Part shown: positions 27,248 to 64,000 of the stretch, piece by piece
How positions within the stretch are numbered: the first letter of the stretch is position 1
How the letters are laid out: the number at the start of each line of letters is the position of its first letter
Translations under genes and position numbers: made by a program
Assembly (NCBI GenBank): GCA_964387275.1
Contig: CAYLVW010000001.1
Location: forward strand, 150,619 to 214,618
DNA: 64,000 nt
Source of the DNA: an uncultured Candidatus Saccharibacteria bacterium
Lineage (GTDB): Bacteria > Patescibacteriota > WWE3 > UBA101185 > UBA10185
Reading direction: 5' to 3'
Notes under the pieces: generated by a model
Told to the model about the DNA's origin: nothing
Databases searched by the model: none
The model's input: only the letters and a program-made list of their open reading frames with translations

Positions 27248-28366
27248 ATGAAAATAACACTAGTAATACCAACCTATAACGAAGTTGAAAATATTCGTCT
27301 CCTTTTACCAGCTCTCTTTGAGGAGTTTAACAAATACCCAGAACATGAGTGGTCAGTTTTGATAGTAGATGGAAATTCTCCTGATGGTACCGCCAGTGAA
27401 GTGAGGACTGTTATGTCTAATAATTCCAATGTACACATTATAGTTGAAAAAGAAAAACGTGGTTTGGGTAGCGCCTATATAACTGGGTTTAAAGAAGCAA
27501 TGAATGGTTTGAATGCTGATGCTGTTGTAGAAATGGATGCTGATTTCCAACACGATCCAAAAGATGTGATTAGGTTAGTAAGGGAGTTGGAAAATGGTTA
27601 CGATTATATAATAGGCTCGAGATTTGTGGCAGGGGGTTCTATTCCAAAAGAATGGGCGTTTTATAGGAAATTTTTGAGTGTTGGGGGGAGCATTTTTTCA
27701 AAGATAGTACTTGGTATTTATAATGTTAATGATTTTACCTCAGGATTTAAGTGCACAAGGGTTAGGGGTTTTCTAGAAAAGGTTGATTTTTCACAAGTTC
27801 TTTCCAAAGGATTTGCATACAAGATGGATCTTTTATACAAAATGTTTCTGCTTGGCGCTAAATTTAGGGAAGTTCCTATAGAATTCGGGTTAAGGGATCG
27901 GGGAGACTCTAAGATGGAGAATAACAACTTCATGGACTCCTTAAAAGTTATTTTATTGCTTAGATTTTATAAAAGTAAGAGTTTTTTCAAATTTGCTATA
28001 GTCGGTTTTGCTGGACTTTTTGTAGATATACTAATCTTTAATTTTGCTAGGTACTTAAGTGGACAATCCGGGTTATCTGCACTTATATCAGGCGCTATAG
28101 CAATGTTTACTACTTTTATGCTTAATAATTATTGGTCGTTTGGTGAAAGAAAGATTGAGAGGTTTTCCAAACAACTAGTTGGCATTATAATATATATTGC
28201 ATCTTCTGCTATACCAGTTTTGGTTAGGAGCAAGTTGGTGCATTATTCTACAGATACCTTTGGCGATACATTTATTGTTTCTAATGTAGCGTTTTTCATT
28301 GGGATAGTATTTGGTCTTATTTGGAACTATACAGTGTATAGCAGGGTAATCTGGAAAAAGAAATGA
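27248..28366 (+). CDS. GT2 polyprenyl-phosphate sugar synthase (Dpm1/Ppm1-like) fused to a C-terminal GtrA-like 4-TM domain.
   Basis: ITLVIPTYNE...VLIVDGNSPDGTA...DADFQHDP is a DPM1-type GT-A motif set. The C-terminal FAIVGFAGLFVDILIFN...NNYWSFGER is GtrA-like. Confidence 0.85.
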   Translation: MKITLVIPTYNEVENIRLLLPALFEEFNKYPEHEWSVLIVDGNSPDGTASEVRTVMSNNSNVHIIVEKEKRGLGSAYITGFKEAMNGLNADAVVEMDADFQHDPKDVIRLVRELENGYDYIIGSRFVAGGSIPKEWAFYRKFLSVGGSIFSKIVLGIYNVNDFTSGFKCTRVRGFLEKVDFSQVLSKGFAYKMDLLYKMFLLGAKFREVPIEFGLRDRGDSKMENNNFMDSLKVILLLRFYKSKSFFKFAIVGFAGLFVDILIFNFARYLSGQSGLSALISGAIAMFTTFMLNNYWSFGERKIERFSKQLVGIIIYIASSAIPVLVRSKLVHYSTDTFGDTFIVSNVAFFIGIVFGLIWNYTVYSRVIWKKK

Positions 28367-29112
28367 AGTTCTCTATTGTTATACCAGCATATAATGAGTC
28401 AGATAAAATTATAAATACTCTTTCTAATGTTGTTTCTTTTATGGATTATTTTAATCCTGATTACGAAGTTCTTGTATGTAATGACGGAAGTGTGGACAGT
28501 ACTGCATCGTTAGTTAGGGATTTTTCCAAAGAGCACCCTAAAATTAAACTTGTCGATAATTCTCATAGAGGAAAGGGTCCTACAATTTGGTCGGGTGTTA
28601 TGACTGCTGAGGGGGATTTTATTTATGTGGCGGATGCTGATTTGTCTGCCCCAATGTCTGAGTTAAAGAAAATGTATGTGTGGATTAGTGAACAAAACTA
28701 TGATTTAGTAATAGCTTCAAGAGAAGGCATTGGTGCTAATAGAGTGGGTGAGCCTTTTTATAGACATTTAATGGGCAGGATTTTTAACCTTCTCGTGCAA
28801 TCAGTTTTATTACCAGGGATAAAGGATTCTCAATGTGGATTTAAATTATTTAAAAAAGATGCAGCTAAACAACTTTTCGCAAAGCTTAAAGTATATGGCC
28901 CGGAGGCTTTGGAAATAAAAGATGCTTACTTAGGTGCTTTTGATGTTGAGGTGTTATATATTGCTAAAAAACTTGGATTTAGGGTAAAGGAAGTTCCTGT
29001 AACTTGGCAGTACGTCAAGACCACCAGACTTAACCCTATTGCTGATTCACTAAAAATGGCCAGAGATGTTTTATTAGTAAAAATTAATTACTCGAAAGGG
29101 GTCTATAAATAA
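28363..29112 (+). CDS. GT2 glycosyltransferase, Dpm1/dolichyl-phosphate glucosyltransferase-like (soluble/peripheral).
   Basis: FSIVIPAYNES...VLVCNDGSVDST...ADADLSAP are GT-A DxD motifs. Confidence 0.8.
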   Translation: MKFSIVIPAYNESDKIINTLSNVVSFMDYFNPDYEVLVCNDGSVDSTASLVRDFSKEHPKIKLVDNSHRGKGPTIWSGVMTAEGDFIYVADADLSAPMSELKKMYVWISEQNYDLVIASREGIGANRVGEPFYRHLMGRIFNLLVQSVLLPGIKDSQCGFKLFKKDAAKQLFAKLKVYGPEALEIKDAYLGAFDVEVLYIAKKLGFRVKEVPVTWQYVKTTRLNPIADSLKMARDVLLVKINYSKGVYK

Positions 29113-29114
29113 CT

Positions 29115-30446
29115 ATGAAGTTATGTATTATAGGTACAGGTTATATAGGTTTGGTTGGTGCTACAGTTTTCTCTGATTGGGGAAACGAAGTTATCGGAGT
29201 TGATGTAGACAAAAAGAAAATAGAGAGGATCCAAGCTGGGGATATGCCTATATACGAGCCTGGACTTTCAGAACTAGTGTTAAAGAATGTGGAGAATAAG
29301 CATCTTCGCTTTACTACAGATCTTGAAGATGGTGTCAGAAATTCAGAGATCATCTTTATATGTGTTGGTACCCCTCAGGATCATGACGGCTCTGCAAATT
29401 TATCCTACGTTTATGCCGCTGCTAAGGAGATTGCTACTCATATAAATGATTACAAGGTTATTGTGGTTAAGAGTACAGTTCCGGTTGGTACAAATGAACA
29501 AGTAAAAAGAATTATCAGCGAAAATATTAAAAAAGGAATAGAGTTTGATGTAGTCTCTAACCCAGAATTTTTAAGAGAAGGATCTTCCGTAGAAGATATG
29601 ATGAATACAGACAGAACTGTTTTAGGTTCTGACAGTAAGAGAGCTTTGGAAAAGATGAAAGCTTTGTATCAGCACCTAAATTCACCTATAGTTGAGTGTG
29701 ATTTAAGATCAGCTGAGCTTATTAAATATGCTTCTAACTCATTTTTGGCTACAAAGATTACTTTTATTAATGAAATAAGTCAGCTGTGCGAGAAGACTGG
29801 TGCTGATGTATCTATGGTTGCTAAGGGTATGGGCTTGGATAAAAGAATCGGACCTAGATTTTTAAATGCTGGGCTTGGTTATGGGGGCAGCTGTTTTCCT
29901 AAGGATGTATCCGCTTTATACAAAACTTCTATGGATTATGGTTACCATTTTAAAATTCTGGACTCAGTAATAAGTGCCAACGAAGCTCAGAAAAATGCAT
30001 ACATTTATAAAATAGTTCATATGTATGGCGAGAACCTAACAGGTAAGACTTTTGCTTGTCTTGGCCTTTCCTTTAAAGATAATACTGATGATGTTAGAGA
30101 ATCTGTAGCAATAAAGGTTATTAGAGCTTTGAGGGGTATGGGTGCAAAGATAAATGCATATGACCCTAAAGCTTTAGAGACTGGTAAAAAGGAGCTTGGT
30201 GATTCAAGCATTGAGTATTTCACAAGTCCTTATAAAGCAGTTATGGGAGTGGATGCTATTTGTATTCTTACTGAGTGGCAGGAGTTTGGTAGTTTAGATT
30301 TAGATATGGTGAGAAAATCTGTTAGATGGCCTGTGATATTTGACGGAAGAAATAAGGTAGACTCATTTGAGGCTTTAAAGAATGGTTTTGCTTACTATGG
30401 AATAGGTAGGAAGAGTACTTCTGATACGACACCTGGAGTCCAATAA
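29115..30446 (+). CDS. UDP-glucose 6-dehydrogenase family nucleotide-sugar dehydrogenase.
   Basis: N-terminal Rossmann GTGYIGLVGA and catalytic GGSCFPKD. Confidence 0.88.
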   Translation: MKLCIIGTGYIGLVGATVFSDWGNEVIGVDVDKKKIERIQAGDMPIYEPGLSELVLKNVENKHLRFTTDLEDGVRNSEIIFICVGTPQDHDGSANLSYVYAAAKEIATHINDYKVIVVKSTVPVGTNEQVKRIISENIKKGIEFDVVSNPEFLREGSSVEDMMNTDRTVLGSDSKRALEKMKALYQHLNSPIVECDLRSAELIKYASNSFLATKITFINEISQLCEKTGADVSMVAKGMGLDKRIGPRFLNAGLGYGGSCFPKDVSALYKTSMDYGYHFKILDSVISANEAQKNAYIYKIVHMYGENLTGKTFACLGLSFKDNTDDVRESVAIKVIRALRGMGAKINAYDPKALETGKKELGDSSIEYFTSPYKAVMGVDAICILTEWQEFGSLDLDMVRKSVRWPVIFDGRNKVDSFEALKNGFAYYGIGRKSTSDTTPGVQ

Positions 30447-30448
30447 AG

Positions 30449-31648
30449 ATGAAAAAGATACTATATTTTATACCAGAATTTCCGAAGCTCACCGAAACTT
30501 TTATTGAACGTGAAGTAAGTAAGTTGGTGGATTTGGGTGTTTTAGATGTAAGAGTTCTCAGTGTGAAGAAAGCCAGCGGTTTTTTGTCGCCTAATTTGAC
30601 CGAAAGGGTTACCTTTAGAGATATTAGTATTTTGGATTTTTTTCGGGGGATTAAGTATTTAATTTCATCTTTTGGAAGACTTCACGATATTTTGGTTATT
30701 ATATTTAGTGTAAATAGCCCGAAGCTGGCTGTATCAAATATGATTTACTTTTTGAAATCAGTTGGCTATGCATACGTTATAGATAGTTTTAAGCCCGATC
30801 ATATTCACTCACATTTTCTGTCTTATCCATCTACAATAGTCATGTTTGTATCAATTTTACTAGCCAAGCCTTTTAGCATATCTGGACACGCTAGAGATGT
30901 TTTTGTTGATGGCGAGTTAATACCTCAAAAAGTAGCAAGGGCAAAGTTTATTTCTATTTGTAATACATATGCTTGGAGCAAGTGTATAGAGCTTAGTAAG
31001 GGAGAGAATGCTTCCAATGTTCATAAGATATATCATGGGATGAATTTAACTTCTTTACTTGCTAAAGAGCCTAAGATGGTAAAGCCATCAAGACCACTTA
31101 TTTTTGCAGGTTCACGCTTAGTTGAAAAGAAAGGTTTAAAGTATCTTATAGAAGCTTCCAAAACATTAAAGGAGCGTGGGGTAAATCATGAGGTGCATAT
31201 AGTAGGGCCGGGGCCTTTATATCAACAGCTAGTAGATATGGTTAATTTTTTGGGTTTATCAGATACTGTTTTTATACCTGGTGCTGGAAAAGGAGTATCT
31301 AACGCAGATATTATGGAATATTTTAAGATAGCAGATATATTTGCTCATCCAAGTATTGAGACAGGGACTGGGGACGTGGATGGAGTTCCTACATTTGTTA
31401 TAGAATCCTCTATGGCTAAAGTTCCAGTTGTAACAACAAGAGCAGGTAGTATTACCGATCTTATAGATGACGAGACAGGAGTATTAGTTAAACAAAAAGA
31501 TCCATATTCTTTAGCTGATGGCCTGGAGAAGCTTATTGTAAGTCCTGAGCTTAGAAAATCTCTTGGTCAAAAAGCTTACGATAGGGCTAAGGTAATGTTT
31601 GATCTAGATGTTAATGTGACTTCGTTGCAGACTCTTTTTCTGGAGTAG
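30449..31648 (+). CDS. GT4 (GT-B, retaining) glycosyltransferase.
   Basis: C-terminal Glycos_transf_1 region (FAHPSIETGTGDVDGVPTFVIESSMAKVPVVTT; E-x7-E-like). Confidence 0.8.
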   Translation: MKKILYFIPEFPKLTETFIEREVSKLVDLGVLDVRVLSVKKASGFLSPNLTERVTFRDISILDFFRGIKYLISSFGRLHDILVIIFSVNSPKLAVSNMIYFLKSVGYAYVIDSFKPDHIHSHFLSYPSTIVMFVSILLAKPFSISGHARDVFVDGELIPQKVARAKFISICNTYAWSKCIELSKGENASNVHKIYHGMNLTSLLAKEPKMVKPSRPLIFAGSRLVEKKGLKYLIEASKTLKERGVNHEVHIVGPGPLYQQLVDMVNFLGLSDTVFIPGAGKGVSNADIMEYFKIADIFAHPSIETGTGDVDGVPTFVIESSMAKVPVVTTRAGSITDLIDDETGVLVKQKDPYSLADGLEKLIVSPELRKSLGQKAYDRAKVMFDLDVNVTSLQTLFLE

Positions 31649-31700
31649 TGTTTATTTTTATAGCTTTGTGGGTCAGTGTTTTTTTGATTTATATTAGGTA

Positions 31701-31738: not shown

Positions 31739-31769
31739 CTAAGCCGTCCTACAAAACCAAAACAAAAGC

Positions 31770-32012: not shown

Positions 32013-32078
32013 GATTCTCTCCTCTTTCACCAAAAGTCCTCTCTTAATTAAGACAATAATATCATGTACAATAACCTT

Positions 32079-33260
32079 ATGAAAATTGCTGTTTTTATAA
32101 AATCCACCACGTTTCACAAAACATACGGTGGTATGGAAACACAAAACAAATTATTGTGTGAAGAATTAGCTAGAAGAGGTTACCAAGTCACAGTATTCTC
32201 CCCCCAACTTGAACTTACAATTTCTGACAAGAATGAATTTGGGGTAAGGTATGAATTTATCAATTGTGACTACACAAATTCACTATTGTCATTTATAAAC
32301 CCTAATAGCTGGTTTAAGAAATCTTATGACCATTTTATAAAGCAGGACACTGAAAGAAATTTTGATATCATTATTTCTCAAAGCTCTGCCGCTCTTGGTG
32401 TTATAAAAAGAAGACGCTTTGTAAAAGCATCAATAATTTCAATCTCACATGGAACGACAATTAGCGAATACAAAAGCTACTTATCTTCTGCTAAATCTCT
32501 TAAATCTTACCTACGTTTTGTGCCTAATACTCTATATACTCTAAGAAATTTTTTTGGTAGGCAAAGAGAGTTTATACATGGTTCGGATGTCAATGTGGCA
32601 GTTTCAAATTTTGTTAAAACTAACTTGATCAATGAGACATTTGTTGAAGAGAATAAAGTTATTGTTATCAATAACGGTATAGACCCTAACCCATTTGAGA
32701 AGTTTCAGAGAACTTTCAAAACAGCCAGGAATCTTAAAGTGATGTATTCTGGAAGAGTTGACAGATCTAAGGGGGTATTTCAGTTACTAAGGTTGGCTAA
32801 AAAATTTCCCGAACTTCAGATAAACTTTTATGGAACAGGTGACGCTTATGAAGATCTATCCAAGCAAGTTATGAAAGACAGCATTAACAATGTTGTTATG
32901 CATGGCAAGGTACTGTACAAAGACATGGTGGCTAAATATTTTGAAAATGACGTTTTGGTATTGCCAACTATTCGAGTAGAGGGGTTACCGATGGTTATTA
33001 TTGAGGCGCAGTTTTCCAAATTACCAATTATTGCAAGTGACATGGGAGGTATAACTGACGCAATAAAAAACGGCAAAACAGGCTTGCTTATAAATGCTGG
33101 AGATTTTGAAGACTTAGCTGATAAAATAAAGATACTTATGTCGTCAATGGAAACCAGGAAAAAAGTTTCTGAGGGAGCCTACAATTTTGCAACAGAGAAT
33201 TTTACGATTACTAAGATGACAGATAGATACGAACAAATTATTAGAAAGCTTAGAAAATGA
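32079..33260 (+). CDS. GT4 glycosyltransferase.
   Basis: MKIAVFIKS...GGME N-terminus. C-terminal VLPTIRVEGLPMVIIEAQFSKLPIIASDMGG is the GT4 motif. Start chosen at 32079. Confidence 0.8.
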   Translation: MKIAVFIKSTTFHKTYGGMETQNKLLCEELARRGYQVTVFSPQLELTISDKNEFGVRYEFINCDYTNSLLSFINPNSWFKKSYDHFIKQDTERNFDIIISQSSAALGVIKRRRFVKASIISISHGTTISEYKSYLSSAKSLKSYLRFVPNTLYTLRNFFGRQREFIHGSDVNVAVSNFVKTNLINETFVEENKVIVINNGIDPNPFEKFQRTFKTARNLKVMYSGRVDRSKGVFQLLRLAKKFPELQINFYGTGDAYEDLSKQVMKDSINNVVMHGKVLYKDMVAKYFENDVLVLPTIRVEGLPMVIIEAQFSKLPIIASDMGGITDAIKNGKTGLLINAGDFEDLADKIKILMSSMETRKKVSEGAYNFATENFTITKMTDRYEQIIRKLRK

Positions 33261-34450
33261 AAATTCTTAGAATTGTATACGATTGGCCTCCACCCTGGGA
33301 CGGTTTAGGCCCACATCCTTATGAGGTGACTGTTTCTCAGGCCTTACTTGGTCATGATATTACAGTTTTTTGTGCGAGGTGGCCAAATGCTGGGAAAATT
33401 GAAGAACCTAAAGGTACCTCTGTGGTTGGTTTTATTAGAGAGCCCATTGAAGGTACCTGGTTTTTTACCACTTCTTTACTGATGTTTGGATATTATCTTT
33501 CTTGGAGGTCCCATAACACTCCAGATATTATTCATATACATGGCCATTTTGGTGCATGGATTTATCTTTATCGTAGATTTCTCGCAATATTTAATAAAAA
33601 CCACCCAGAATTATCTATACCTATTGTTTCTCACTTTCACAATACTGTAGCTGGTAGAAGAGCTAAATTTTTATCTATGAACAAACCAATAAAGACTATT
33701 TCTAAGTACTTGTCTTGGCCCATTGCTGAGTGGTCTGATAGGCAAGCTATAAAGCAGTCTAAGGCACATCTTTTTGTTAGCCAAGACACCAGAGACGAGG
33801 CAGTAAAGTTTTACTCCGCTTCTTTAGAAAAATGTTACTTAGTAGAAACTGGTGTTAATACACATTTATTTAGGCCGATAGGTACCGAGGAGTTTGAAAA
33901 AACTCGCAAAGATTTAGGTTTGGATTCCAGAGATATTGTTATTTTGAATTACGGGAAGATGGTTGAGAGAAAAAATATTCATCTACTGGTGGAAGCTTTA
34001 CCAAACTTACCCATAACTTACAAACTTCTGCTTGTTGGTTCTGGGGATAGTTCTTATATCGGGAGAATGAAAGAGCGAATTACAGAGCTTGGTTTAACAG
34101 ATCGGGTTATTTTTGTAGGTTATACTCCGTACCCAGAACTTCCTATAGCAATTCAGGCGTCAAATTTATTTGTTCTTCCTTCAAGCTGGGAGGGTTTACC
34201 AAAGGTTGTTATGGAAAGTTTGGCGTGTAAAGTTAAAGTATTAGCTTCAGGATTTAGAGTATCCGAGGACATTAGGGGTCTATTTTACTTAGAATCTTTG
34301 GAACCTATGGATATTGCAGCCAAAATACAGGAAGTGGTTCAAACTGAGGTTGACGTAGATAGGGATAGGATTATAGACAAATTTTCTTGGGATAAGCGTG
34401 TGCAAATTATTGAAAAGGTATATGAAAAAATCACTTCAGCAGATAATTAA
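33257..34450 (+). CDS. GT4 glycosyltransferase.
   Basis: LPSSWEGLPKVVMESLACKVKVLAS. ATGA overlap with the upstream gene. Confidence 0.8.
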   Translation: MKILRIVYDWPPPWDGLGPHPYEVTVSQALLGHDITVFCARWPNAGKIEEPKGTSVVGFIREPIEGTWFFTTSLLMFGYYLSWRSHNTPDIIHIHGHFGAWIYLYRRFLAIFNKNHPELSIPIVSHFHNTVAGRRAKFLSMNKPIKTISKYLSWPIAEWSDRQAIKQSKAHLFVSQDTRDEAVKFYSASLEKCYLVETGVNTHLFRPIGTEEFEKTRKDLGLDSRDIVILNYGKMVERKNIHLLVEALPNLPITYKLLLVGSGDSSYIGRMKERITELGLTDRVIFVGYTPYPELPIAIQASNLFVLPSSWEGLPKVVMESLACKVKVLASGFRVSEDIRGLFYLESLEPMDIAAKIQEVVQTEVDVDRDRIIDKFSWDKRVQIIEKVYEKITSADN

Positions 34451-36005
34451 TATAGATAAATTCTTCCATGAAAAAAGTACTATAAATTTTGTATTTGTAC
34501 TATTTATTACACTACACTTATTTTTACTAAACATTAACTTTGCAGAGTGGGGAGATTCGTACAGAATACTAAGGGCCTCTGAGTACCTACGCTCCTTTGA
34601 TTATCCTAGTGATGAGAAAAGGCCACCTCTGTATTCTCTGTTGCTTTCCATTAGGCCCTCTGTTGTAGATCCTATTATATGGGGCAAGATATTAATGTTA
34701 CTAATTAGCACGCTAACATTCATACTGTTCACTAAAATAGCCAGTGAGTTTTTTTCAAATAATTATTACAAAACAAATTTAGCTTCATTATTTTTGGCAC
34801 TTAACCCGGTGTTTTTATATTGGTCACTTAGAATTTATGCTGATGTTTTTTTTGCATTAATAGTACTTTTGGCGACTTTAGTTTATATAAAAAGGTATAA
34901 GAGAGTTAATTCGTATCTTAATATTTTCATATTAGGGTTTATTACATCCTTGGGAATAGTAACTAGATTTGAAGGTTTTATTCTTTTTGGGGCACTCGGG
35001 ATTGGAATTACTTTTTCAGAAGGCTTTGTTAACTTGACCTACCAAATAAGAGAAAACTTAGGTAAAGTCTTATCTTATGCCTTAACTGTTGTTTTAATGA
35101 TTTTTCCATACTTTATTTGGAGAAATCCTTTTACAAGCTCTTATTTATCTGAGCCATCAGGCAGAGTATTTGGGGTAAACGAAATAGTAATATTTTTTGC
35201 ATCCGTTGCTTTTTGTGGTGGTTCCATTTTGTATTTTATATTTATAAGCCAATCAATTAATACCATAAAAAAGTTTCTTGTTGAGAATACGTTTATTGGA
35301 AGCTACCTTCTTTTTATTTTAATACTTTCTTTGCTATGGCCCGCTGCTATTCCCAGATTACTGGTTTCTGCTATTCCCTTTGGGATATTATTGTTTGTTG
35401 TTCAGTACACATCTGTTCTTGAGTTTACAAAGAAACAGGTAATAATTGTTAGTTCTCTCCTTATTGGTTTTTATATATTAGTGCAGTATAAATACAAATT
35501 GCAGTTTTTGTTACCGAGTAAACAACTTATGGTTATTGTGATTCTTATGGGTCTTTTGTCACTACTTGCTTATTTGCTTAGGAACAAAAACCTTTTATTG
35601 CTATCTTTCATACTTTCTATGTTTGTCTGGTCATTAACTGTAGTATATTTGCATAAAGATATATTCAAGGTTGTAACATTAGGTGCCAAATTCGCAGGTA
35701 GGGGTTTGGATGGGGTTGTTGCTTACAACGATATCTCCGCTGTATCTGACTGGTATCTTAATAATGATCCTTTGAGAAATCCTAAAGTTAGTGGAAAATT
35801 TCTACCTTACTACAAAAAATCCGATGCTAGCTTATCTAATCTGAGGGCAATAGGGTCAGATTATCTTCTTATTACTAACGAGCATAATTTGAGTATGACA
35901 TTTGATGATAGCGACAAGCCTTATTTAGAAAAAGTAGCTGAATATACTGAAACAGTAAATGGAGGTAGTTTTTTTACCAAAGTATACAAGGTAAAGTATA
36001 ATTAA
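34422..36005 (+). CDS. GT-C fold membrane glycosyltransferase, ArnT/PMT-like (GT39/GT83-type).
   Basis: More than 10 predicted TM segments. The first extracytoplasmic loop reads YPSDEKRPPLYSLLLS, matching the ArnT-family DE...KPPL..W motif. C-terminal soluble domain. Start at 34422 (GAAAAGG RBS). Confidence 0.7.
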   Translation: MKKSLQQIINIDKFFHEKSTINFVFVLFITLHLFLLNINFAEWGDSYRILRASEYLRSFDYPSDEKRPPLYSLLLSIRPSVVDPIIWGKILMLLISTLTFILFTKIASEFFSNNYYKTNLASLFLALNPVFLYWSLRIYADVFFALIVLLATLVYIKRYKRVNSYLNIFILGFITSLGIVTRFEGFILFGALGIGITFSEGFVNLTYQIRENLGKVLSYALTVVLMIFPYFIWRNPFTSSYLSEPSGRVFGVNEIVIFFASVAFCGGSILYFIFISQSINTIKKFLVENTFIGSYLLFILILSLLWPAAIPRLLVSAIPFGILLFVVQYTSVLEFTKKQVIIVSSLLIGFYILVQYKYKLQFLLPSKQLMVIVILMGLLSLLAYLLRNKNLLLLSFILSMFVWSLTVVYLHKDIFKVVTLGAKFAGRGLDGVVAYNDISAVSDWYLNNDPLRNPKVSGKFLPYYKKSDASLSNLRAIGSDYLLITNEHNLSMTFDDSDKPYLEKVAEYTETVNGGSFFTKVYKVKYN

Positions 36006-56137: not shown

Positions 56138-57187
56138 ATGGATAAACCACTTCTTACTATTTGTATACCAGCATATAACAGACCTGATACCTTATCTGAA
56201 GTATTAGAATCCATAAAAAAACAAAACTCCGCAGAAATTAGAGTAATTGTGTCAGATGATGCATCACCAGATGCTAATGCTATGAGAATTGCAGTAGATC
56301 CGTATCTACAGAGTATGGAGAACCTTTCTTATCACAGAAAGGAGAGTAACGTTGGGTATAGTGCAAATGTTATTTCCCTATACGAGATGGCTGATACAAG
56401 GTACATTTGGTTTTTTTGTGATGATGACATTCCATTGGAGGGTTCTATACAAACAGTCTTAGGGCAAATTAAATCAAAGGAACCTGTTGTCGCTGTTTTT
56501 AATCATATGCAATTTGATCCTTATGAGCGATATATTGAAGCTGGTGTGAAGCATGATGTTGTATATACAGATATCTCCCAGATAAGAGACTATCAAGAGC
56601 TTCAAAGAATAACTTTTTTGTCAGTCCTTGTTGTTGAGAAGAGAGATATTAGTCTGGAGCAGTTAAAGCAGACAGATTACACTAATAATGTGTTTGTCCA
56701 ACTCACTTTATCTTTGATGCTTTTAAGTGACAAGTTTAGATACTGCCAGTTAGCAAAACCTATACTCCATAGAAATGTGGGATATAACTACGGAGATTTT
56801 TTCAAATTCTATATAGTGGATCATTTGCGAGCCGTAAACATTGTTAAAACCAAATTTGATCCGAATAAGTTTTTATTTTGGTCATTTAGGCACCTTCCTA
56901 TAGCATTCAATCTTTACCTATCTCAGAAACTTGGTTTATACGCGTACAGAAAAAGGCCAACTCTTAAAACTATTAAAGATATTTTTAGGTATTGGGGAGC
57001 GCTGGGAATACTTCCGATCGTAATTCCAGTAGTATCATTTTTTATACCCTCAATACTTCTTAAAGGTATATTTATGCTTATGTTAATCAAAGATCATGGC
57101 TATGAGAGAGCAAAATACTTATATGCAAAAAACATCAACCGTGCTTATAATGATACAAGAAAAACAGGATTTATAAATTATAGATAG
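56138..57187 (+). CDS. GT2 glycosyltransferase.
   Basis: LLTICIPAYNRPDTLSEVLESIKKQ...VIVSDDASPD...FCDDD. Confidence 0.8.
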   Translation: MDKPLLTICIPAYNRPDTLSEVLESIKKQNSAEIRVIVSDDASPDANAMRIAVDPYLQSMENLSYHRKESNVGYSANVISLYEMADTRYIWFFCDDDIPLEGSIQTVLGQIKSKEPVVAVFNHMQFDPYERYIEAGVKHDVVYTDISQIRDYQELQRITFLSVLVVEKRDISLEQLKQTDYTNNVFVQLTLSLMLLSDKFRYCQLAKPILHRNVGYNYGDFFKFYIVDHLRAVNIVKTKFDPNKFLFWSFRHLPIAFNLYLSQKLGLYAYRKRPTLKTIKDIFRYWGALGILPIVIPVVSFFIPSILLKGIFMLMLIKDHGYERAKYLYAKNINRAYNDTRKTGFINYR

Positions 57188-57191
57188 GCAT

Positions 57192-57902
57192 ATGAAATAC
57201 TTTACAAAATTTTTTACATATTTCAACTTTTTGAAGACATACCTTATCCCTGGTAGTAAGAATTCAGTAATAGATGCTTTTCACACGTTATACTACGACT
57301 CTTACTTGGTGGGAGGTACTTGGTCTAGAAACACATTTTTAGGAACTCCTATACAGAAATGTCCGATGGATCTTCAAACCTATCAAGAAATACTATATGA
57401 AACTAAGCCAGATCTCATAATCGAATGTGGCACTGCCTTTGGTGGGGGTGCCTTATACCTGGCTAGTTTGTGTGATTTGATAGGCGTTGGCGAAGTTGTG
57501 ACTATTGATGTAGTAAATAGACCTGAATTCCCAAAACACCCAAAAATTACTTATCTAACTGGTTCCTCTACTGATCCAGAGATAGTAGCTAAAGTAAGAG
57601 ATCTAGCTAAAGGAAAAAGTAGGGTTATGGTCATATTAGACTCAGATCATAGAATGTCTCACGTTCTTACAGAACTTGAACTCTATCATTCATTTGTAAC
57701 TGCTGGGTGTTATCTAATAGTAGAAGATACTAATGTAAACGGTCATCCTGTAAGGCCTGAGCATGGTGAAGGCCCTTATGAGGCACTTACAAGGTTTTTG
57801 GAAATCAACAAAAGCTTTGAGATAGATAAGCTAAGGGAAAGCGGTTATATAACTTTTAACCCTAGTGGCTATCTTAAGAAAATAAAAACTCAGAATTTGT
57901 AG
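57192..57902 (+). CDS. CmcI/cephalosporin-hydroxylase-family (PF04989-type) sugar O-methyltransferase.
   Basis: YLVGGTWSRNTFLGTPIQKCPMDLQTYQEILYETKPDLIIECGTAFGGGALYLA matches the CmcI-family core used by rhamnosyl/fucosyl O-methyltransferases. Confidence 0.7.
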   Translation: MKYFTKFFTYFNFLKTYLIPGSKNSVIDAFHTLYYDSYLVGGTWSRNTFLGTPIQKCPMDLQTYQEILYETKPDLIIECGTAFGGGALYLASLCDLIGVGEVVTIDVVNRPEFPKHPKITYLTGSSTDPEIVAKVRDLAKGKSRVMVILDSDHRMSHVLTELELYHSFVTAGCYLIVEDTNVNGHPVRPEHGEGPYEALTRFLEINKSFEIDKLRESGYITFNPSGYLKKIKTQNL

Positions 57903-57928
57903 AAGTTTTCTATTACTGCCCTCATAAA

Positions 57929-59908
57929 ATGAAAAAAACTTTAGCGTTACTGATATTTGTAACTATATTAATATTTATTTCCATTTTCTCTAAAATACCT
58001 AATGACAGTTTTTTGTTTATACATGATGAGTATTTAGTCTTTACTAAAGATGAAGCATTGAACTCTTTTTTTGTACGAAGCAGCAATGATCTAGGTTATT
58101 CAACATTTTCTATAATTCTTGTTACTTTTTGGGACAGGGTTCTTTACTTGGTTTTATATTATCTAGGGTTATCTCTTCCTTACGTTTCAAAAGTAAGTTA
58201 TCTTATTAAGTTTCTATTGATCACAGTATTACCTTTTTTTGGTTTCAAAAAGATTATTGAGCATATGGGTAGGGTAGATTGGTTAAGTTTATTTTTTCTT
58301 AGTTTATTTTATGCATTTGGTTCATTCCCATTAGTATATTGGCATGGTAATGGATTTTCCTTAAGTTTACTAATATTTTATTCCTTAGCTCCTCTGGCTT
58401 TTTGGTATGTAATAGAAATATGTCGGAGAGAGCTTGCTTTAATTGAATTGATAAGTTTCGTTATTCTGCTTTTTTTTATGAGTTTTGGTTTTTACATTTA
58501 CTTAGTATTTATATTTGTATCTTTCTTGTATGTCTTGTTCTTAGGTAGAAATAAGTTTTTTGTGACTAATTTGGTTAAGTTGTTTTTGTTATTTTTACCA
58601 TTTATTAGTTTACTTTGGCTTATTGTTTATGATATGTTTTTTACTTCGGTTCAAAATGTGAACTTTTCCGGTGGAGAAACATACAATCAGATCAGAGGAG
58701 GTTTTCTTTACCCACTATTTCAATGGTTTTCTTGGGGCATTTATACTATTTGGACTCCCAGATCAATCTTTACTTTTTACGAATATTTACAAGGCCCTTT
58801 CTACATTTTACCTCTTGTGGGTATGTACATATACATAGGTTATTTAAGTTACAAGTATAAGTTTTGTCGTTTTTTCTACATACTGCTTGGAATAATGCTT
58901 TTTGTTTTGTTATTAGTGAAAGGCTCTCAGCCGCCATTTAACGACTTATATTTATATTTAGTTGAAAACGTAGCAATATTTAGGGTATTTAGATCTCCAG
59001 ATAATAAGTTTGGCTTTGGGGTATTCTTTGTGCTTACACTTATTATTTCGTATGTAGTGTCAAAGTACTACTCGTTTAGGGTAAGGCATAAAGTGTTGTT
59101 TGTTGGTTTTCTATCTATTTTTGTTTTGTCTCAAGTTTGGGTTTTTATTTCTTCAAGAGGTTTAATCGGTGAGGATTCATCAGTATCTTCTGACAGGGTT
59201 GTTAGTATACCTGAAAATTACACTAGCTTGGCTAATTTTATAAATAGGTTACCTTATGGCTATATTATTACCTCACCGGAATCAGATTTTAGCTATTTTT
59301 CAATAGGTGAAGATAGGCATTTCGGGCAGGACATTCTACCAAAAATTATCTTTAAGCCTTTTATTTACACCAATGAGCACTCTTCAATTTCAAAAGATGC
59401 CAGCTTAATAATAAAAGACGCTATACAAAGTGCTGATTATACAAAAACCCCAATAAAATACTACTTGCTTAGAAAAGACAATATTTTAAAACTAAAACCT
59501 GAGATTATCCCGGGTGACTGGCCTTTACTATATTCAGATTCCACATTTTCTCTTTATTCTGTAATAGAAAGTATGGAAGTAATCTCCTCCACCTCCCCTA
59601 TTAGATTTGAGTATAAATCTCCTATATTATTTAAAATTGTGACTACAACTGGAAATTCCCAAAATATTACTTTAAATGAGAATTATTCATTAGGCTGGGG
59701 GTTATTGGGTGGGAATTCAGTATTAAAAGCAAGTAGAGTTGGGGCTTCAGATTATGGTAATTATTGGGAGCTTGAAGCAAGTGAGGTTTCAAGAGAAATG
59801 ATGTTATACTATGAGCCTCAGAACTATTTATACTTAGGAATTATTATATCTTTAGTATATTTATTGCTACTGGTTATTGCCCGACTGGTTTTCTGGTTAA
59901 GATCATGA
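57929..59908 (+). CDS. Large polytopic membrane protein (659 aa), putative GT-C glycosyltransferase. Paralog of 59905..61998.
   Basis: About 13 TM segments plus a C-terminal soluble domain and a final TM. Shares colinear motifs with the next gene (IHDEYLVF/IGDQFLRF, GSQPPFNDLYLY/AAQPPFGEIFMF, FRVFRSPDNKFGFGV/FGVFRSADARFGLAV). Confidence 0.5.
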   Translation: MKKTLALLIFVTILIFISIFSKIPNDSFLFIHDEYLVFTKDEALNSFFVRSSNDLGYSTFSIILVTFWDRVLYLVLYYLGLSLPYVSKVSYLIKFLLITVLPFFGFKKIIEHMGRVDWLSLFFLSLFYAFGSFPLVYWHGNGFSLSLLIFYSLAPLAFWYVIEICRRELALIELISFVILLFFMSFGFYIYLVFIFVSFLYVLFLGRNKFFVTNLVKLFLLFLPFISLLWLIVYDMFFTSVQNVNFSGGETYNQIRGGFLYPLFQWFSWGIYTIWTPRSIFTFYEYLQGPFYILPLVGMYIYIGYLSYKYKFCRFFYILLGIMLFVLLLVKGSQPPFNDLYLYLVENVAIFRVFRSPDNKFGFGVFFVLTLIISYVVSKYYSFRVRHKVLFVGFLSIFVLSQVWVFISSRGLIGEDSSVSSDRVVSIPENYTSLANFINRLPYGYIITSPESDFSYFSIGEDRHFGQDILPKIIFKPFIYTNEHSSISKDASLIIKDAIQSADYTKTPIKYYLLRKDNILKLKPEIIPGDWPLLYSDSTFSLYSVIESMEVISSTSPIRFEYKSPILFKIVTTTGNSQNITLNENYSLGWGLLGGNSVLKASRVGASDYGNYWELEASEVSREMMLYYEPQNYLYLGIIISLVYLLLLVIARLVFWLRS

Positions 59909-61998
59909 GACGTTTTATTATTGAACATAGGCATAAGATAATTGTTTTAACTGCATCAATTATTATTTCATTGTTATTTGTTAGAGTCGTTTTTGCTCCA
60001 GTTTCAAAAAGCGAGTTTTTACTAATAGGGGATCAATTTCTTAGGTTCAGTTTTGCGGAAACGTACAACAATTCTTTTTTTATTTTGAAATCAGAGAATT
60101 TTGGAATACACAACGCGTGGGTATTTGTTGTCCAGTTTTGGGACACAATTTATTTTTATGTTTCCTATCTTTTGGGTTTAAAGTTACTTGAAGCAGAGAA
60201 GTTGCAGTTTTTTACAACAGTGCTAGTAAGTTTAATTTTCTCATATGTAGGTTTCTATAAACTATCTGAAAAATACGACCGGAAAATTAAATATATACCG
60301 TTAGGATTAATATCTTTATGGTATGTTTTTAATCCATACACTCTTACACTGTGGCATGGTGGTGTTTATAATATAGGGCTTGCCCTCACTTACTCACTTG
60401 CTCCACTTGTGTTTTATTATTTAAATAAGATACTTTTTGATACATATAGACGCTTGGATATCTTATTATTGGTTATTCTGATTTTTCTGAGCTCTTTTGT
60501 TTTTTGGGCATTTGCTTCTGTAATATTCTTGTTAATAGTTTACACAATTACAAGGTATTGTTTTGAGCCTAGGTATTTAAAGAGGCTATTATCAAGGGAT
60601 GTAATATTGTTAGTTTTACTTACAATTTCTTCATTAAGTTATATCTTATTTTCACAAGTTTTTGAATTTAGTAGACTAACTGGGTTTGGCAATCCCTTTA
60701 CTTCTCCATCATTTGGAAATCAGCAGGGTGGTTTGTGGTATCAGATTCTGATGTACTTTTCTTGGGGAATATACACCGAATGGGTCCCCCGTACTCTATA
60801 TCCTTTTAATAAGTTCTTTTTTACAAACGAATATATTGTAGCCACTTTGTCTATATACCTACTTATGCTGGCTTCAATAATCAAGAGTTTGCCCAGAAAT
60901 AAGAGACTAATTGTATTCTTGCTAATAACACTTCTTGTAAGTTTATTCTTTGCGAAAGCAGCTCAGCCTCCATTTGGGGAAATATTTATGTTTCTATACA
61001 CAAAGGTACCTTTTTTCGGAGTTTTTAGGAGTGCTGATGCGAGATTTGGCTTAGCCGTAGTGTTGGTTATTGCTTTGCTTCTTAACACTACAAAAGAAAA
61101 AGTAAGTTGGAAATTGTATCTACCAATTATGTTATTCATCATTTTAATTCAGAATAAGCCCGTTATTCAGGGGTACGGTATATATGGTTTAAATGTAGAC
61201 AATAGATTTTATGATCGTATCATAAGTATTCCCGAACAGTATGTTCGTATCTCTGATATTATAAACTCTGATAAAGACCACTTCTATGTGTTATCAGATC
61301 CTCCTATAGTTCAAGGCCACATACTTTTAAACCAAGATAGTCATCATATAGGACAAGATATGCTTTCTAAACTTATTGAAAAACCTATGGTATATATTTC
61401 CACTAATGACACTAGATTACATAGTGATGCCGAGTCCTTACTAAGTAGCATCAAACGCAGTAAAAGGTACGATAAATTCTGGTCTTTACCTATTAAGTAT
61501 TTCTTAGTTCGTAAGGATTTTGTCTGCCAGGATTGTAAATATTTGGATGACATTGAAATGAGTAAGTATTTTGAAAAGTTGTATGTTGGGGATAGCGTAA
61601 TACTTTACAAGAACCCTTACTACACAAGCATCTTTGGGGATACAGTTGATGGTGAGTATATTAATCCAACTAGGTTTTACATAAGTAATGGAGGTTTTGA
61701 TAATCAAGAATTTAATTTTATGCTTACTTATTCAGATGATTGGGTCTTATATAAACTAAATTCTAAGAGAGAGGCTTATTATCCAGATTTGTACTATATG
61801 TTTAAAGATGAGTACAGCTCGCAAACTCATGAAAAGTATTCTGAATATGCTAACAGGTGGCAAATAGATAAGGGAAGTTTTTTAGTATATTACAAGCCTC
61901 AAATCATGTACAAGTTTTTCTTGTATCTAAGTATTACGACAATAGCATGTGTTGCGTTGTTGATTATTTATACCTATATTAATTATAGGAGAAAATAA
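59905..61998 (+). CDS. Large polytopic membrane protein (697 aa), putative GT-C glycosyltransferase. Paralog of 57929..59908.
   Basis: See the previous entry. ATGA overlap with the upstream gene. Confidence 0.5.
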   Translation: MRRFIIEHRHKIIVLTASIIISLLFVRVVFAPVSKSEFLLIGDQFLRFSFAETYNNSFFILKSENFGIHNAWVFVVQFWDTIYFYVSYLLGLKLLEAEKLQFFTTVLVSLIFSYVGFYKLSEKYDRKIKYIPLGLISLWYVFNPYTLTLWHGGVYNIGLALTYSLAPLVFYYLNKILFDTYRRLDILLLVILIFLSSFVFWAFASVIFLLIVYTITRYCFEPRYLKRLLSRDVILLVLLTISSLSYILFSQVFEFSRLTGFGNPFTSPSFGNQQGGLWYQILMYFSWGIYTEWVPRTLYPFNKFFFTNEYIVATLSIYLLMLASIIKSLPRNKRLIVFLLITLLVSLFFAKAAQPPFGEIFMFLYTKVPFFGVFRSADARFGLAVVLVIALLLNTTKEKVSWKLYLPIMLFIILIQNKPVIQGYGIYGLNVDNRFYDRIISIPEQYVRISDIINSDKDHFYVLSDPPIVQGHILLNQDSHHIGQDMLSKLIEKPMVYISTNDTRLHSDAESLLSSIKRSKRYDKFWSLPIKYFLVRKDFVCQDCKYLDDIEMSKYFEKLYVGDSVILYKNPYYTSIFGDTVDGEYINPTRFYISNGGFDNQEFNFMLTYSDDWVLYKLNSKREAYYPDLYYMFKDEYSSQTHEKYSEYANRWQIDKGSFLVYYKPQIMYKFFLYLSITTIACVALLIIYTYINYRRK

Positions 61999-63629
61999 TG
62001 AACATCATTAACTCAATACTTTATATTTACAACGATATGGCTGTTTTATTCGTCGATGCTATAAGACTAAAGTATGGTTATAATCTTTTTCCTTTATTTG
62101 ATCCTACAATAAAGATTTCTGGTATAGATTTTTTAAACTCAGTGTCATTAGTAGTATTGTTTAGAGTTTTTGACCCTGTTGTCGGAGCTAATATTCTTTC
62201 TATTTTTTATTTGTCTATGCTTCTATTTTTTTCGTATAAGCTGTTCTCGTATTTTGATGTTAACAAGTTGCTAGTTATAGTATTTTCTGTTACTAACACT
62301 TTTAGTATCTACATGCTTTATAGGATTATATCTTTCACTCCAAATATCTATCAGGTTTTTTTCTTTCCCCTTGTCTTATTGTTACTACTTAAAAATAAAT
62401 TAAGTCCGCTTAAACTAGGATTAGTAGTTTTTTTGTTTTTTGCTTCCAGTCTTTATAATGGGTACTACTCCTTCTGGTTAATAATTTTTTGGTGGTTATC
62501 AGAGTTAATTTATTCTCTTTTGTTAAAGAAAGGGGAGTGCCTACCTGCTGTTAAATCTTTTATAGCAAAAGTTCTATTATTTTCTTTCCCCTTACTATTG
62601 ATGGGGGGCATAGCTTTTGGATCTTTGGCCATCAAAACCCTACCTTTCTTGGCCAAATTTGATAAGAGCCCTCAAAATAAAGTCATTACTAATACCCCAG
62701 GTGCCTATAGGCCTATTGAAAATTTCTATAACCTTACATTTAGGCCATGGTATTTTGTTATACCTCCAAAGAACTCATTATTTTTTGGCGATTTTTCTAA
62801 AAATACATATAAAGCCATTGAAGGTACAGGGTACTATCTTGCAAATGACTATACTGAGGAGGAAGCGGCCGGGAGTTTCATTGGGTGGCATATGTTACTT
62901 GGGGTATTTTTAGCCTTTGGGATACTATTGTTTGGCAATAAATACAGTCTATTTTTTCCAACACTTTTTAATTATAAGCAGGTGGTTTTTAAGGCATTAT
63001 TGTCTATTTTCCTCATATTCCTTATCTCAGGACCTCCTTCTTTTACGGTAAATGGCTTTACATTTTACACCCCTTCTTACTTACTATATTTTGTTTTGCC
63101 AATATTCCGTACTTTAGTAAGATTCTCATCTATAATTTTTATGTTAGTTTTGGTAATCAATATTTTTTTGTATAACGATTTATTATTTCACATTAGAAGT
63201 AAGGTTCTAAAGTTTTTAGTTTTTTTTCTTCTGATTACAATGAACTTTATTTTCTTTGCAATAAAACTTCCGGTTATAGATATAAATAAACCGCCTAAAG
63301 AATTCGCAACTATAAAGCTCCTACCTGAGAATTCAATGGTTGCTGTTTATCCAAAAGCCGATTATAAATCCATGTTTTGGACATCCTACACCAGGGTCAA
63401 ACTAGCAAATCCTAATGGTTTTATTAATCTAAATAGTGGATTTAGTTCTGATTCTTTTACAAAAAGACTAACTACACAAGGCGGCATTGATGAAGGTAAG
63501 TTATTAGGTATAACACATATACTTTATTACAGGGACAATGGCTTACCTGAAACAGAGGCTTTATTCAAGAAAAATGCATCAGAAATTATTGATATCGATA
63601 CAAGCTATGTTATCTACAAGATTAACTAA
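61998..63629 (+). CDS. Large polytopic membrane protein (543 aa) with a C-terminal soluble domain, possibly a third member of the same GT-C-like group.
   Basis: At least 10 TM segments in the N-terminal 420 aa. Its start overlaps the upstream stop by 1 nt (TAATG). Confidence 0.45.
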   Translation: MNIINSILYIYNDMAVLFVDAIRLKYGYNLFPLFDPTIKISGIDFLNSVSLVVLFRVFDPVVGANILSIFYLSMLLFFSYKLFSYFDVNKLLVIVFSVTNTFSIYMLYRIISFTPNIYQVFFFPLVLLLLLKNKLSPLKLGLVVFLFFASSLYNGYYSFWLIIFWWLSELIYSLLLKKGECLPAVKSFIAKVLLFSFPLLLMGGIAFGSLAIKTLPFLAKFDKSPQNKVITNTPGAYRPIENFYNLTFRPWYFVIPPKNSLFFGDFSKNTYKAIEGTGYYLANDYTEEEAAGSFIGWHMLLGVFLAFGILLFGNKYSLFFPTLFNYKQVVFKALLSIFLIFLISGPPSFTVNGFTFYTPSYLLYFVLPIFRTLVRFSSIIFMLVLVINIFLYNDLLFHIRSKVLKFLVFFLLITMNFIFFAIKLPVIDINKPPKEFATIKLLPENSMVAVYPKADYKSMFWTSYTRVKLANPNGFINLNSGFSSDSFTKRLTTQGGIDEGKLLGITHILYYRDNGLPETEALFKKNASEIIDIDTSYVIYKIN

Positions 63630-63644
63630 TGGTACACTAAAATA

Positions 63645-64000
63645 GTGATAGAAATCCTAAGAACTAATAATGTAATAATCCCAATTGTAACCATTATTAT
63701 TGTTGTGATTCTTTCAATAGTAAATACTTCGATTTTTAATAAAATTAGGGTATTTACTATGGTGCTTGCTGGCTCTGCACTACTATACGGATTACAAACA
63801 ATCTCTGTGTTTTTGATGATGCTTTTTGTAGTGTCCGTGTTGCACTACATTTCAACTTACAATATTCGAAGTAAGACTTTACTCTTACTGGCACTTTTTT
63901 CTCTATTATTATCTGTGATACTGTATTTTACTTCATATTATGAAGCTTCTTTGTTTGTTATTGAATTATTTGTAGTAACCTTAATTTTATTAGTATATAA
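63645..64000 (+). CDS. 3'-truncated ORF encoding the N-terminus of another polytopic membrane protein (polymerase or ligase/Wzy-like, or another GT-C, is possible).
   Basis: The frame is open from the GTG at 63645 (or ATG 63759) to the window end. The translation is strongly hydrophobic. It is not in the ORF track because no stop falls within the window. Confidence 0.35.
   Translation, partial: MIEILRTNNVIIPIVTIIIVVILSIVNTSIFNKIRVFTMVLAGSALLYGLQTISVFLMMLFVVSVLHYISTYNIRSKTLLLLALFSLLLSVILYFTSYYEASLFVIELFVVTLILLVY

Follow-up and report, generated by a model that had tools for sequence, protein, structure and literature searches.

We analysed a 64,000-nucleotide stretch (the window) of the 420-kb contig CAYLVW010000001.1, assembled from an uncultured Candidatus Saccharibacteria bacterium (GCA_964387275.1), which carries a dense island of glycan biosynthesis genes. 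The named homologues of the island proteins all come from Patescibacteria, mostly from candidate division WWE3, and judged by these similarities the organism is a WWE3-like Patescibacterium. Between positions 27248 and 63629 there are 29 complete open reading frames (ORFs), consecutive and all on the + strand, and a 30th begins at 63645 and is cut by the window end. The initial annotation of this DNA had described about 30 co-directional genes with ATGA overlaps, and we indeed found 4-nt overlaps at 10 junctions (9 ATGA, 1 GTGA) and only two intergenic gaps longer than 30 nt (31649-32063, 415 nt; 38851-38894, 44 nt). The G+C content changes from about 0.36-0.39 upstream to 0.31-0.35 within the island. 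In our reading, the island is likely to be a conserved locus of at least 46 kb for the biosynthesis of a cell-envelope glycoconjugate, probably by two combined routes.

The island encodes eight large membrane proteins, all of them polytopic and named here by the start of their genes (TM, transmembrane; TM1, first TM segment; AF2, AlphaFold2):

34422..36005 (+; ORF from 34398), GT-C glycosyltransferase, PMT_2/ArnT-like, from its homologues' Pfam matches and a DEKRPPL motif after TM1
36703..38850 (+), presumed GT-C, a polytopic membrane protein of the DUF2079 family that ends in an ectodomain (Pfam DUF2079, 112 bits, cut-off 28.2)
41305..42849 (+), GT-C, PMT_2/ArnT-like, paralogue of 44301 (phmmer 1e-32)
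42833..44296 (+), GT-C of the PMT_2 family (PMT_2 50.5 bits, cut-off 26.1; PMT 41.8 bits, above cut-off)
44301..45881 (+), GT-C, PMT_2/ArnT-like (weak PMT_2 match, E 0.0076, 16.9 bits, under the cut-off of 26.1)
57929..59908 (+), AftD-like GT-C that carries an ectodomain and is anchored by a C-terminal TM segment (phmmer 3.5e-62 to 59905; member of alignment A1)
59905..61998 (+), AftD-like GT-C, paralogue of 57929, of a family essentially without Pfam assignment (fold match, AF2 model)
61998..63629 (+), GT-C of a family without Pfam assignment (structure model, Foldseek)

The start of 34422 is that of the database gene call (P0113, 527 aa); the same protein is also labelled 34398. The initial annotation took these proteins for GT-C enzymes, and this is confirmed, by profile or by fold, for seven of the eight, whose polytopic cores resemble solved GT-C enzymes. 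The eight fall into two pairs of paralogues (41305/44301 and 57929/59905) and four singletons by phmmer. In the PMT_2/ArnT-like group, 42833 also matches yeast Pmt1 (6p25) at 1e-8. Neither 41305 nor 34398 has a Pfam match of its own; the homologues of the latter (~40% identity, E ~1e-110) are from Patescibacteria, often carry PF13231/PF02366 and are named as GT39 or ArnT family. Among the 40 sequences aligned for the 41305/44301 family (alignment A3), 31 match PMT_2 at E <= 0.01, and the best match of the A3 profile in the PDB is ArnT (5ezm, E 3.5e-9), with a PMT at 5e-5. The DE...PPL or HPDE loop motifs that had been pointed out in 34422, 42833 and possibly 57929 are all present in the sequence, as SDEKRPPLYS (34398), HPDEPT (42833) and IHDEY (57929). 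An NCBIfam scan of the eight proteins returned no matches, nor did single-sequence PDB searches with 34398, 44301, 59905, 61998 and 36703.

The two AftD-like proteins and 61998 were assigned by other means. An alignment of 51 sequences of the 59905 family (A1) was the basis of an AF2 model with a pLDDT of 91.3, which has a beta-rich ectodomain of ~230 residues and a C-terminal TM helix, and whose best structural match is AftD. Neither 59905 nor 57929 matches Pfam, and the GT-C_AftD model (PF11847) is touched by one of the 51 family members, at 8e-4. With a length of 660-700 aa, an ectodomain of ~230 aa and genes of the decaprenylphosphoryl-arabinose (DPA) pathway not seen, these proteins are related to AftD and are not members of the AftD family. 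The gene in the AftD-like position of a related locus (L030) passes Pfam GT-C_AftD, with 34 bits, and matches members of the 59905 family at phmmer ~1e-30. For 61998 the model has a pLDDT of 86.9 and Foldseek supports a GT-C, while no member of its family (alignment A2) matches any Pfam model. PDB profile searches with A1, A2 and a further GT-C family alignment (A5) gave no useful matches, and a scan of genome contigs with 61998 alone gave none at all; an exact-sequence look-up of 59905 returned no entry.

These families keep acidic residues in their N-terminal part: D43 (49/51), E52 and D80 in A1, D13 and D44 in A2, E35 and D40 in A3, and E44 and D45, both invariant, in A5. In A1 and A3 they fall shortly after TM1, in a putative extracytoplasmic loop, and they are candidate catalytic residues. 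The 61998 family differs from canonical GT-C enzymes in having no obvious TM1 ahead of its conserved N-terminal YND motif (D13; window 61998-62130); the ORF cannot be extended upstream, its start overlapping the stop codon of 59905. Two oddities concern homologues of 59905. In locus L016 (1126-3353), one is broken in two (ORFs of 137 aa and 603 aa), which points to a frameshift or a misassembly, and a third copy of the family lies at 7788-9938. Another family member lies on a 5.1-kb contig binned as 'uncultured Neisseria sp.' (L011, CAYZUJ010000103.1), probably misbinned because all other matches are from Patescibacteria.

Were the large membrane proteins transporters or other non-glycosyltransferases, the region would be an ordinary capsule or O-antigen-like locus. 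Five of the eight indeed have no Pfam or NCBIfam match of their own, but the GT-C evidence rules out a transporter identity for seven, leaving it formally for 36703 only, and we hold this explanation to be extremely improbable.

GT-C enzymes of this kind are accompanied in the island by candidate polyprenyl-phosphate-sugar synthases and by flippases:

27248..28366 (+), putative polyprenyl-phosphate-sugar synthase, a GT2 with a fused flippase-type GtrA/DPMS TM domain (Pfam GT2 85 bits, GtrA_DPMS_TM 52.5 bits)
28363..29112 (+), soluble Dpm1/GtrB-like GT2 (Pfam; PgfS and ArnC best in NCBIfam, under cut-off)
36010..36699 (+), soluble Dpm1/AglJ-like GT2 (Pfam GT2 120 bits; AglJ 106 bits full length, under cut-off)
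38895..40370 (+), MOP (Wzx-type) flippase (Pfam Polysacc_synt, Polysacc_synt_3)
40367..41302 (+), UPF0104/LPG_synthase_TM flippase-like protein (Pfam 147 bits; TIGR00374 73 bits, above cut-off)
45886..47175 (+), second MOP flippase (Polysacc_synt 69 bits)

Pfam recovers the GT2 and GtrA domains of the three GT2 proteins, as well as the two MOP flippases and the UPF0104 protein, all of which had been recognised from the sequence before. The top NCBIfam models of the three GT2s are all polyprenyl-phosphate-sugar synthases (PgfS, ArnC, AglJ, Dol-P-hexose transferase, PpgS), those of 27248 being PgfS, AglJ, ArnC and PpgS, all under cut-off. The scores range from 40 to 106 bits against cut-offs of 325-529, and 'Dpm1-like' is a well-supported lead that stops short of demonstrated family membership. 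Two of the genes are physically tied to likely partners: 27248 by its fusion to GtrA, and 36010 by its position next to the DUF2079 gene, a pair kept in the WWE3 genomes L096 and L098. The co-location of the Dpm1-like GT2s and the GtrA and UPF0104 proteins suggests that the GT-C enzymes would use polyprenyl-phosphate or polyprenyl-diphosphate sugars as donors.

The remaining genes of the island within the window encode sugar supply, cytoplasmic transferases and tailoring enzymes (GlcA, glucuronic acid; SAM, S-adenosylmethionine):

29115..30446 (+), UDP-glucose 6-dehydrogenase, Ugd, for UDP-GlcA supply (three UDPG_MGDP_dh domains, Pfam)
30449..31648 (+), cytoplasmic GT4 (Pfam Glycos_transf_1)
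32064..33260 (+), cytoplasmic GT4 (Pfam)
33257..34450 (+), cytoplasmic GT4 (Pfam)
47154..47978 (+), GT2, the start of module B (see below; Pfam; orthologue in L009, E 3e-122)
47975..48802 (+), EpsE/TuaG-like GT2 (Pfam 135 bits, NCBIfam; kept in L005, L006, L009, L010)
48799..50814 (+), fusion of GDP-mannose 4,6-dehydratase and GDP-L-fucose synthase, GMD-Fcl (gmd 570 bits, cut-off 415; Fcl 490, cut-off 500)
50786..51448 (+), SAM methyltransferase (Pfam Methyltransf_11)
51445..52572 (+), GT4 (Pfam; orthologues in L005, L007 and L009, E 1e-124 to 1e-138)
52569..53051 (+), hexapeptide O-acetyltransferase (Pfam, NCBIfam)
53048..54100 (+), CgeB-like Glyco_trans_1_2 transferase (Pfam 86 bits; orthologues in 7 loci, E ~1e-124 to 1e-141)
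54097..54687 (+), methyltransferase (Pfam; kept in 7 loci)
54630..56135 (+), two-domain methyltransferase (two methyltransferase stretches, Pfam)
56138..57187 (+), GT2 (Pfam; kept in 8 loci)
57192..57902 (+), CmcI/rhamnosyl-O-methyltransferase-like sugar O-methyltransferase (RMNT_CmcI 207 bits; RhmsylMtase 160 bits, cut-off 400, failed)

Pfam and NCBIfam thereby uphold the list given for this part by the initial annotation, namely GT4, GT2 and CgeB-like transferases, GDP-fucose and UDP-GlcA supply, four methyltransferases and an acetyltransferase. The best NCBIfam match of the dehydrogenase 29115 is TuaD (538 bits, cut-off 700); the protein also exceeds the cut-off of an NDP-sugar dehydrogenase subfamily model (471 bits, cut-off 190). 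Weak matches to TuaC, TuaG and TuaH occur elsewhere in the island. Gene fusion varies among the loci. The GMD and GDP-fucose synthase make up a single 671-aa protein in the window and are two overlapping genes in L005 (574-2545), and the methyltransferase 54630 is one gene in the window, L009 and L013 and two genes in L004, L005 and L007. The true start of the latter is probably near 54684; the gene call of its counterpart in L002 has 483 aa.

The island does not end with the window. A 32-kb contig of the European Nucleotide Archive (ENA), L002, is 99.5% identical to positions 51998-64000 (12 kb) and runs on for a further 9.6 kb, from which it follows that the island spans at least 46 kb. The bounds proposed by the initial annotation (27248-64000) were right as to gene content and too narrow at both edges, the locus continuing past 64000 and probably starting at 25965. 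The first gene past 63629 encodes the following protein:

63645..64000 (+, partial), small protein of 121 aa with ~4 TM segments, the start of module C (see below; full ORF in L002, 11648-12013)

In many loci the 61998 homologue has small TM proteins next to it. After the 121-aa protein, L002 encodes in order a 636-aa membrane protein (d636), a polytopic 527-aa protein (d527), three GT4 and a 958-aa Wzy_C-PMT fusion. The d527 protein is a further GT-C, because hhalign links its family profile to the PMT_2-like A3 (96.5% probability, E 8e-10). The fusion (L002 19066-21632) combines a Wzy_C domain (50 bits) with a PMT-type one (PMT 70 bits, PMT_2 68 bits). With sizes of ~950-1020 aa it recurs in all 26 long related loci, e.g., L010 (16186-19257) and L012 (9404-12448), and we found no description of it in the literature searched. 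The region in total has about ten GT-C domains and one Wzy_C domain over at least ~46 kb.

The initial annotation had suggested a search beyond the window for Wzy, Wzz, a ligase or an initiating phosphoglycosyltransferase (PGT). The region read yielded the first of these, as the Wzy_C domain, and neither a PGT nor Wzz. With regard to a Wzx/Wzy-type scheme, two MOP genes thus lie within the window and the Wzy_C domain outside it, in L002. In only 4 related loci is a PglC-type PGT (Bac_transf, 178 bits) encoded no more than 10 kb away from the genes from d527 to the Wzy_C-PMT fusion, and here, as in most of the related loci, the PGT gene may lie in another part of the genome.

We propose that two routes are combined at this locus. 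In the first, the GT4, GT2 and CgeB-like transferases would build an oligosaccharide on a polyprenyl carrier at the cytoplasmic side, from UDP-GlcA (Ugd), GDP-fucose (GMD-Fcl) and other nucleotide sugars, and the four methyltransferases and the acetyltransferase would modify it. The MOP flippases would export the product, and the Wzy_C domain of the downstream fusion would polymerise or ligate it. In the second, the three Dpm1/GtrB-like GT2s would produce polyprenyl-phosphate monosaccharides, to be translocated by the GtrA domain and the UPF0104 protein, and the ~ten GT-C enzymes would add the sugars, outside the membrane, to a growing polymer and/or to proteins. Donor identities, flippase roles and the order of steps are those we infer from gene content. 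The initial annotation had envisaged a glycan that grows by single sugars taken from lipid-phosphate donors; this stands for about half of the likely chemistry, as assembly in blocks on a lipid diphosphate is also likely because there are 8 cytoplasmic GT4, GT2 and CgeB-like enzymes, 2-3 MOP flippases and the downstream Wzy_C domain. As to the acceptor, an anionic heteropolysaccharide or lipoglycan, anchored in the wall or the membrane, seems to us more likely than protein, because the best structural relatives of the GT-C enzymes (AftD, AftA, ArnT) modify polysaccharides or lipids, because of the Tua-like matches and because the GT-C enzymes are so many.

Several observations count against this proposal. 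First, no initiating PGT (Bac_transf or Glycos_transf_4; WbaP/PglC or WecA type) matches any ORF of 27248-64000, as the initial annotation had also noted, or of the 9.6 kb beyond, which leaves the first route without its first enzyme at the locus. Second, the NCBIfam matches to characterised enzymes (PgfS, ArnC, AglJ, Tua, rhamnosyl O-methyltransferase) are well under their curated cut-offs, except for GMD and the NDP-sugar dehydrogenase subfamily, and the identities of the sugars are weakly constrained for this reason. Third, the DUF2079 protein 36703 is a presumed GT-C, from the acidic residues just after TM1 and from a conserved gene position, always directly following a Dpm1-like GT2 gene. 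We take DUF2079 to belong to the GT-C clan of Pfam, but neither hhalign against four GT-C family profiles nor a PDB sequence search gave a link, and the literature on DUF2079/PF09852 held nothing informative on GT-C membership. Fourth, the conserved d636/p754 family has neither a Pfam match nor an hhalign link to the GT-C families, and no assignable role. Finally, the three modules of the island, described below, differ in their phylogenetic spread and may for that reason make separate products.

The d636/p754 proteins (636-754 aa; L002 12016-13926, L009 14266-16407, L016 5340-7604) are encoded between the genes for the 61998-type and d527-type GT-C enzymes, a conserved position in which they evolve fast. 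They form one family (local HMM, E 2.4e-24) and share a layout of an N-terminal signal or TM segment, a ~170-aa ectodomain, 5-7 TM segments and a ~250-aa C-terminal ectodomain.

The abundance of PMT-like enzymes could also be read as a system mainly for general protein O-glycosylation, in which these GT-C enzymes would mannosylate or otherwise glycosylate Ser/Thr of secreted, S-layer or pilus proteins with polyprenyl-phosphate sugars as donors, like the actinobacterial Ppm1/Pmt or the streptococcal Pgf system, and Wzy_C would act as an O-oligosaccharyltransferase of PglL/WsaB type and move a methyl-capped oligosaccharide to protein. O-methyl capping and Wzy_C-type O-oligosaccharyltransferases are features of S-layer glycan pathways. 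Five proteins or domains are of the PMT/PMT_2 lineage, PgfS is the best NCBIfam match of 27248 and 28363, and a membrane-anchored CAP protein that adjoins the island in three genomes is a possible substrate. Yet PMT_2 also covers modifiers of lipids and polysaccharides such as ArnT, which, rather than a PMT, is the best structural match of A3; that of 59905 is the polysaccharide-extending AftD. MIR or other PMT-specific luminal domains are absent from the Pfam scan, and ten GT-C enzymes far exceed the need of known systems of this type. We thus regard protein as the main target as distinctly improbable, and retain an envelope polysaccharide or lipoglycan as the favoured acceptor.

The comparison with relatives showed that the island is not one unit but falls into three conserved modules, which have been passed down in WWE3 and related Patescibacteria. 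Module A (~25965-47175) is found gene for gene in L096 and L098, with 40-67% identity, in the order CAP, small TM protein, GT2-GtrA, GT2, Ugd, three GT4, GT-C, GT2, DUF2079, and then MOP, UPF0104, three GT-C and MOP. In L096 it likewise sits after SecY-Adk-Map, and in L098 it is broken up by unrelated genes. A recent strain-specific horizontal insertion is ruled out by its occurrence at the same place, after SecY-Adk-Map-CAP, in L096. Module B (47154-63629) occurs in WWE3, Levybacteria, Roizmanbacteria and other Patescibacteria metagenome-assembled genomes, with E values down to 1e-141, and consists of two GT2, GMD-Fcl, a methyltransferase, GT4, the acetyltransferase, the CgeB-like transferase, two methyltransferases, GT2, the CmcI methyltransferase, two AftD-like GT-C and the 61998 GT-C. 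Module C (d527, three GT4 and Wzy_C-PMT) has an identical order in 26/26 metagenomic loci of at least 15 kb. Ahead of it there are, as a rule, a 61998-like gene, one for a small TM protein and one for a large membrane protein that is AftD-like or unassigned; a MOP flippase usually comes after it (32 loci). Much of the island is thereby conserved across several candidate phyla.

Given such modules, the island might be three independent pathways lying side by side with no common product: a GlcA-containing, teichuronic-acid-like polymer or decoration (A), a methylated, fucose-containing glycan (B) and a separate, widely conserved polymer (C). Among the 26 loci that have module C, only a minority have genes of module B within 10 kb of it; unrelated genes interrupt module A in L098, and each module has a flippase candidate of its own. 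In this genome, in contrast, the genes all run in one direction and are closely packed, and ATGA overlaps bridge the junctions 45886/47154 and 59905/61998; the order of B then C recurs in L005, L008, L009 and L016; and a single Wzy_C domain was seen for the entire region. Three separate pathways seem to us rather unlikely, and we prefer a single locus with two combined routes. One gene of module A varies on its own: at L096 6007-6108 all that is left of the UDP-glucose dehydrogenase gene is a 33-aa remnant in an otherwise intact module, so that the GlcA supply may be dispensable in that lineage or come from elsewhere.

The island shares traits with several known systems. As in the lipomannan (LM), lipoarabinomannan (LAM) and arabinogalactan pathways of mycobacteria and corynebacteria (Ppm1, PimE, MptA/B/C, Emb, AftA-D), polyprenyl-phosphate-sugar synthases would feed many extracytoplasmic GT-C enzymes, and the positional homologue in L030 passes the Pfam AftD model. 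The island differs from these pathways in being one contiguous, co-directional block in a Patescibacterium, in adding GDP-fucose, GlcA and methylation, in lacking UbiA/DprE-type or PimA/B-type signatures among its Pfam matches, and in that its own AftD-like proteins fail the Pfam model. Two-step pairs (GtrB/GtrA/GtrC, ArnC/ArnT, CsbB/YfhO, Ppm1/Pmt, PgfS/PgfM1/PgfM2) resemble it in the GT2 adjoining a presumed GT-C (36010/36703), in the GT2-GtrA fusion (27248) and in the best NCBIfam matches (PgfS, ArnC, AglJ), whereas the island has three synthases and ~ten GT-C enzymes instead of one pair, and scores far under the equivalog cut-offs. With Wzx/Wzy systems and the tuaA-H genes for teichuronic acid of Bacillus subtilis it has in common the MOP flippases, the GT4 and GT2 enzymes, the UDP-glucose dehydrogenase (TuaD) and the downstream Wzy_C. 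It lacks a TuaA-type PGT and Wzz/TuaF in the region read, its Wzy_C is fused to a PMT-type GT-C, and its GT-C enzymes are many where the Tua loci have none. Clusters for S-layer or protein O-glycosylation (Geobacillus WsaA-P, Tannerella, PglL/PilO) also have a Wzy_C-type domain, possibly an O-oligosaccharyltransferase, and O-methyltransferases capable of capping chains, but the island has no ABC exporter, identified target protein or PGT and has far more GT-C enzymes. By this comparison, the island appears functionally closest to the actinobacterial LM/LAM/arabinogalactan systems and the GtrB/ArnC/CsbB two-step systems, set on a Wzx/Wzy-like pathway. It would be a member of none of them, because the AftD model and architecture are unmatched, there is no DPA pathway and no PGT or Wzz, and the equivalog cut-offs are not reached.

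The logic of the pathway is ordinary and no new principle is demonstrated; it is the density of GT-C enzymes that is unusual. The new elements are two GT-C families unassigned in Pfam, the recurrent Wzy_C-PMT fusion and a poorly understood phylogenetic setting. Literature searches for a described GT-C or glycan cluster of Patescibacteria found none, the closest report being that of essential exopolysaccharide (EPS) genes in a Saccharibacterium (PMC10633639).

The genomes of Patescibacteria are extremely reduced, typically ~1 Mb, and the group makes up a large share of bacterial diversity. To our knowledge, their envelope chemistry is essentially unknown. The retention in such a lineage of more than 46 kb of island DNA, with ~ten GT-C enzymes, suggests an important role for the surface glycoconjugate. 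Tentatively, and with somewhat less than even confidence, we suggest that the block of AftD-like, small TM, 61998-type, p754, d527, three GT4, Wzy_C-PMT and MOP genes could serve to build an as yet undescribed envelope polymer that is widespread in Patescibacteria, with at least two new GT-C families. If so, the polymer could be termed a 'CPR lipoglycan or secondary wall glycan' (CPR, candidate phyla radiation) and might be central to envelope integrity or host-cell attachment. The locus provides testable material, i.e., three putative polyprenyl-phosphate-sugar synthases and two Pfam-unassigned GT-C families, for which there are high-confidence models and Asp residues as catalytic candidates. 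The predicted sugars are GlcA and O-methylated or acetylated fucose. The genes could serve as markers of an envelope trait in metagenomes, and the locus is of interest to those who study CPR envelopes and GT-C enzymes.

The left edge of the island probably includes two genes upstream of the GT2-GtrA gene:

25965..26978 (+), CAP-domain membrane protein, conserved left neighbour of the island (Pfam CAP, 67 bits)
26945..27244 (+), small protein of ~85-99 aa with ~2 TM segments, the ORF directly upstream of the GT2-GtrA gene

Orthologues of the CAP protein, with 48-51% identity, directly precede the island in L096 and L098, and 85-aa homologues of the 26945 protein occupy the same position in both; the two genes together lie at 2836-4051 in L096 and at 1498-2853 in L098. 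The flank of L098 differs, having HU and a GT4 in place of SecY-Adk-Map. Both genes probably belong to the locus, because two more WWE3 genomes, one of them with different flanks, have them ahead of the island as well; the CAP-domain protein is a possible component or substrate of the island.

Rfam and tRNA scans of the whole window gave no matches, and promoter and terminator scans of 26800-32200 gave no more hits than in shuffled sequence. The sole long non-coding stretch inside the island is the 415-nt gap that separates the first two GT4 genes (31649-32063); it holds small implausible ORFs only, with no Rfam match and no consensus terminator, and may contain an internal promoter. Upstream of the island lie rpoB, a run of ORFs sized like a ribosomal-protein cluster (judged by sizes only), SecY, Adk, Map and the CAP-domain protein.

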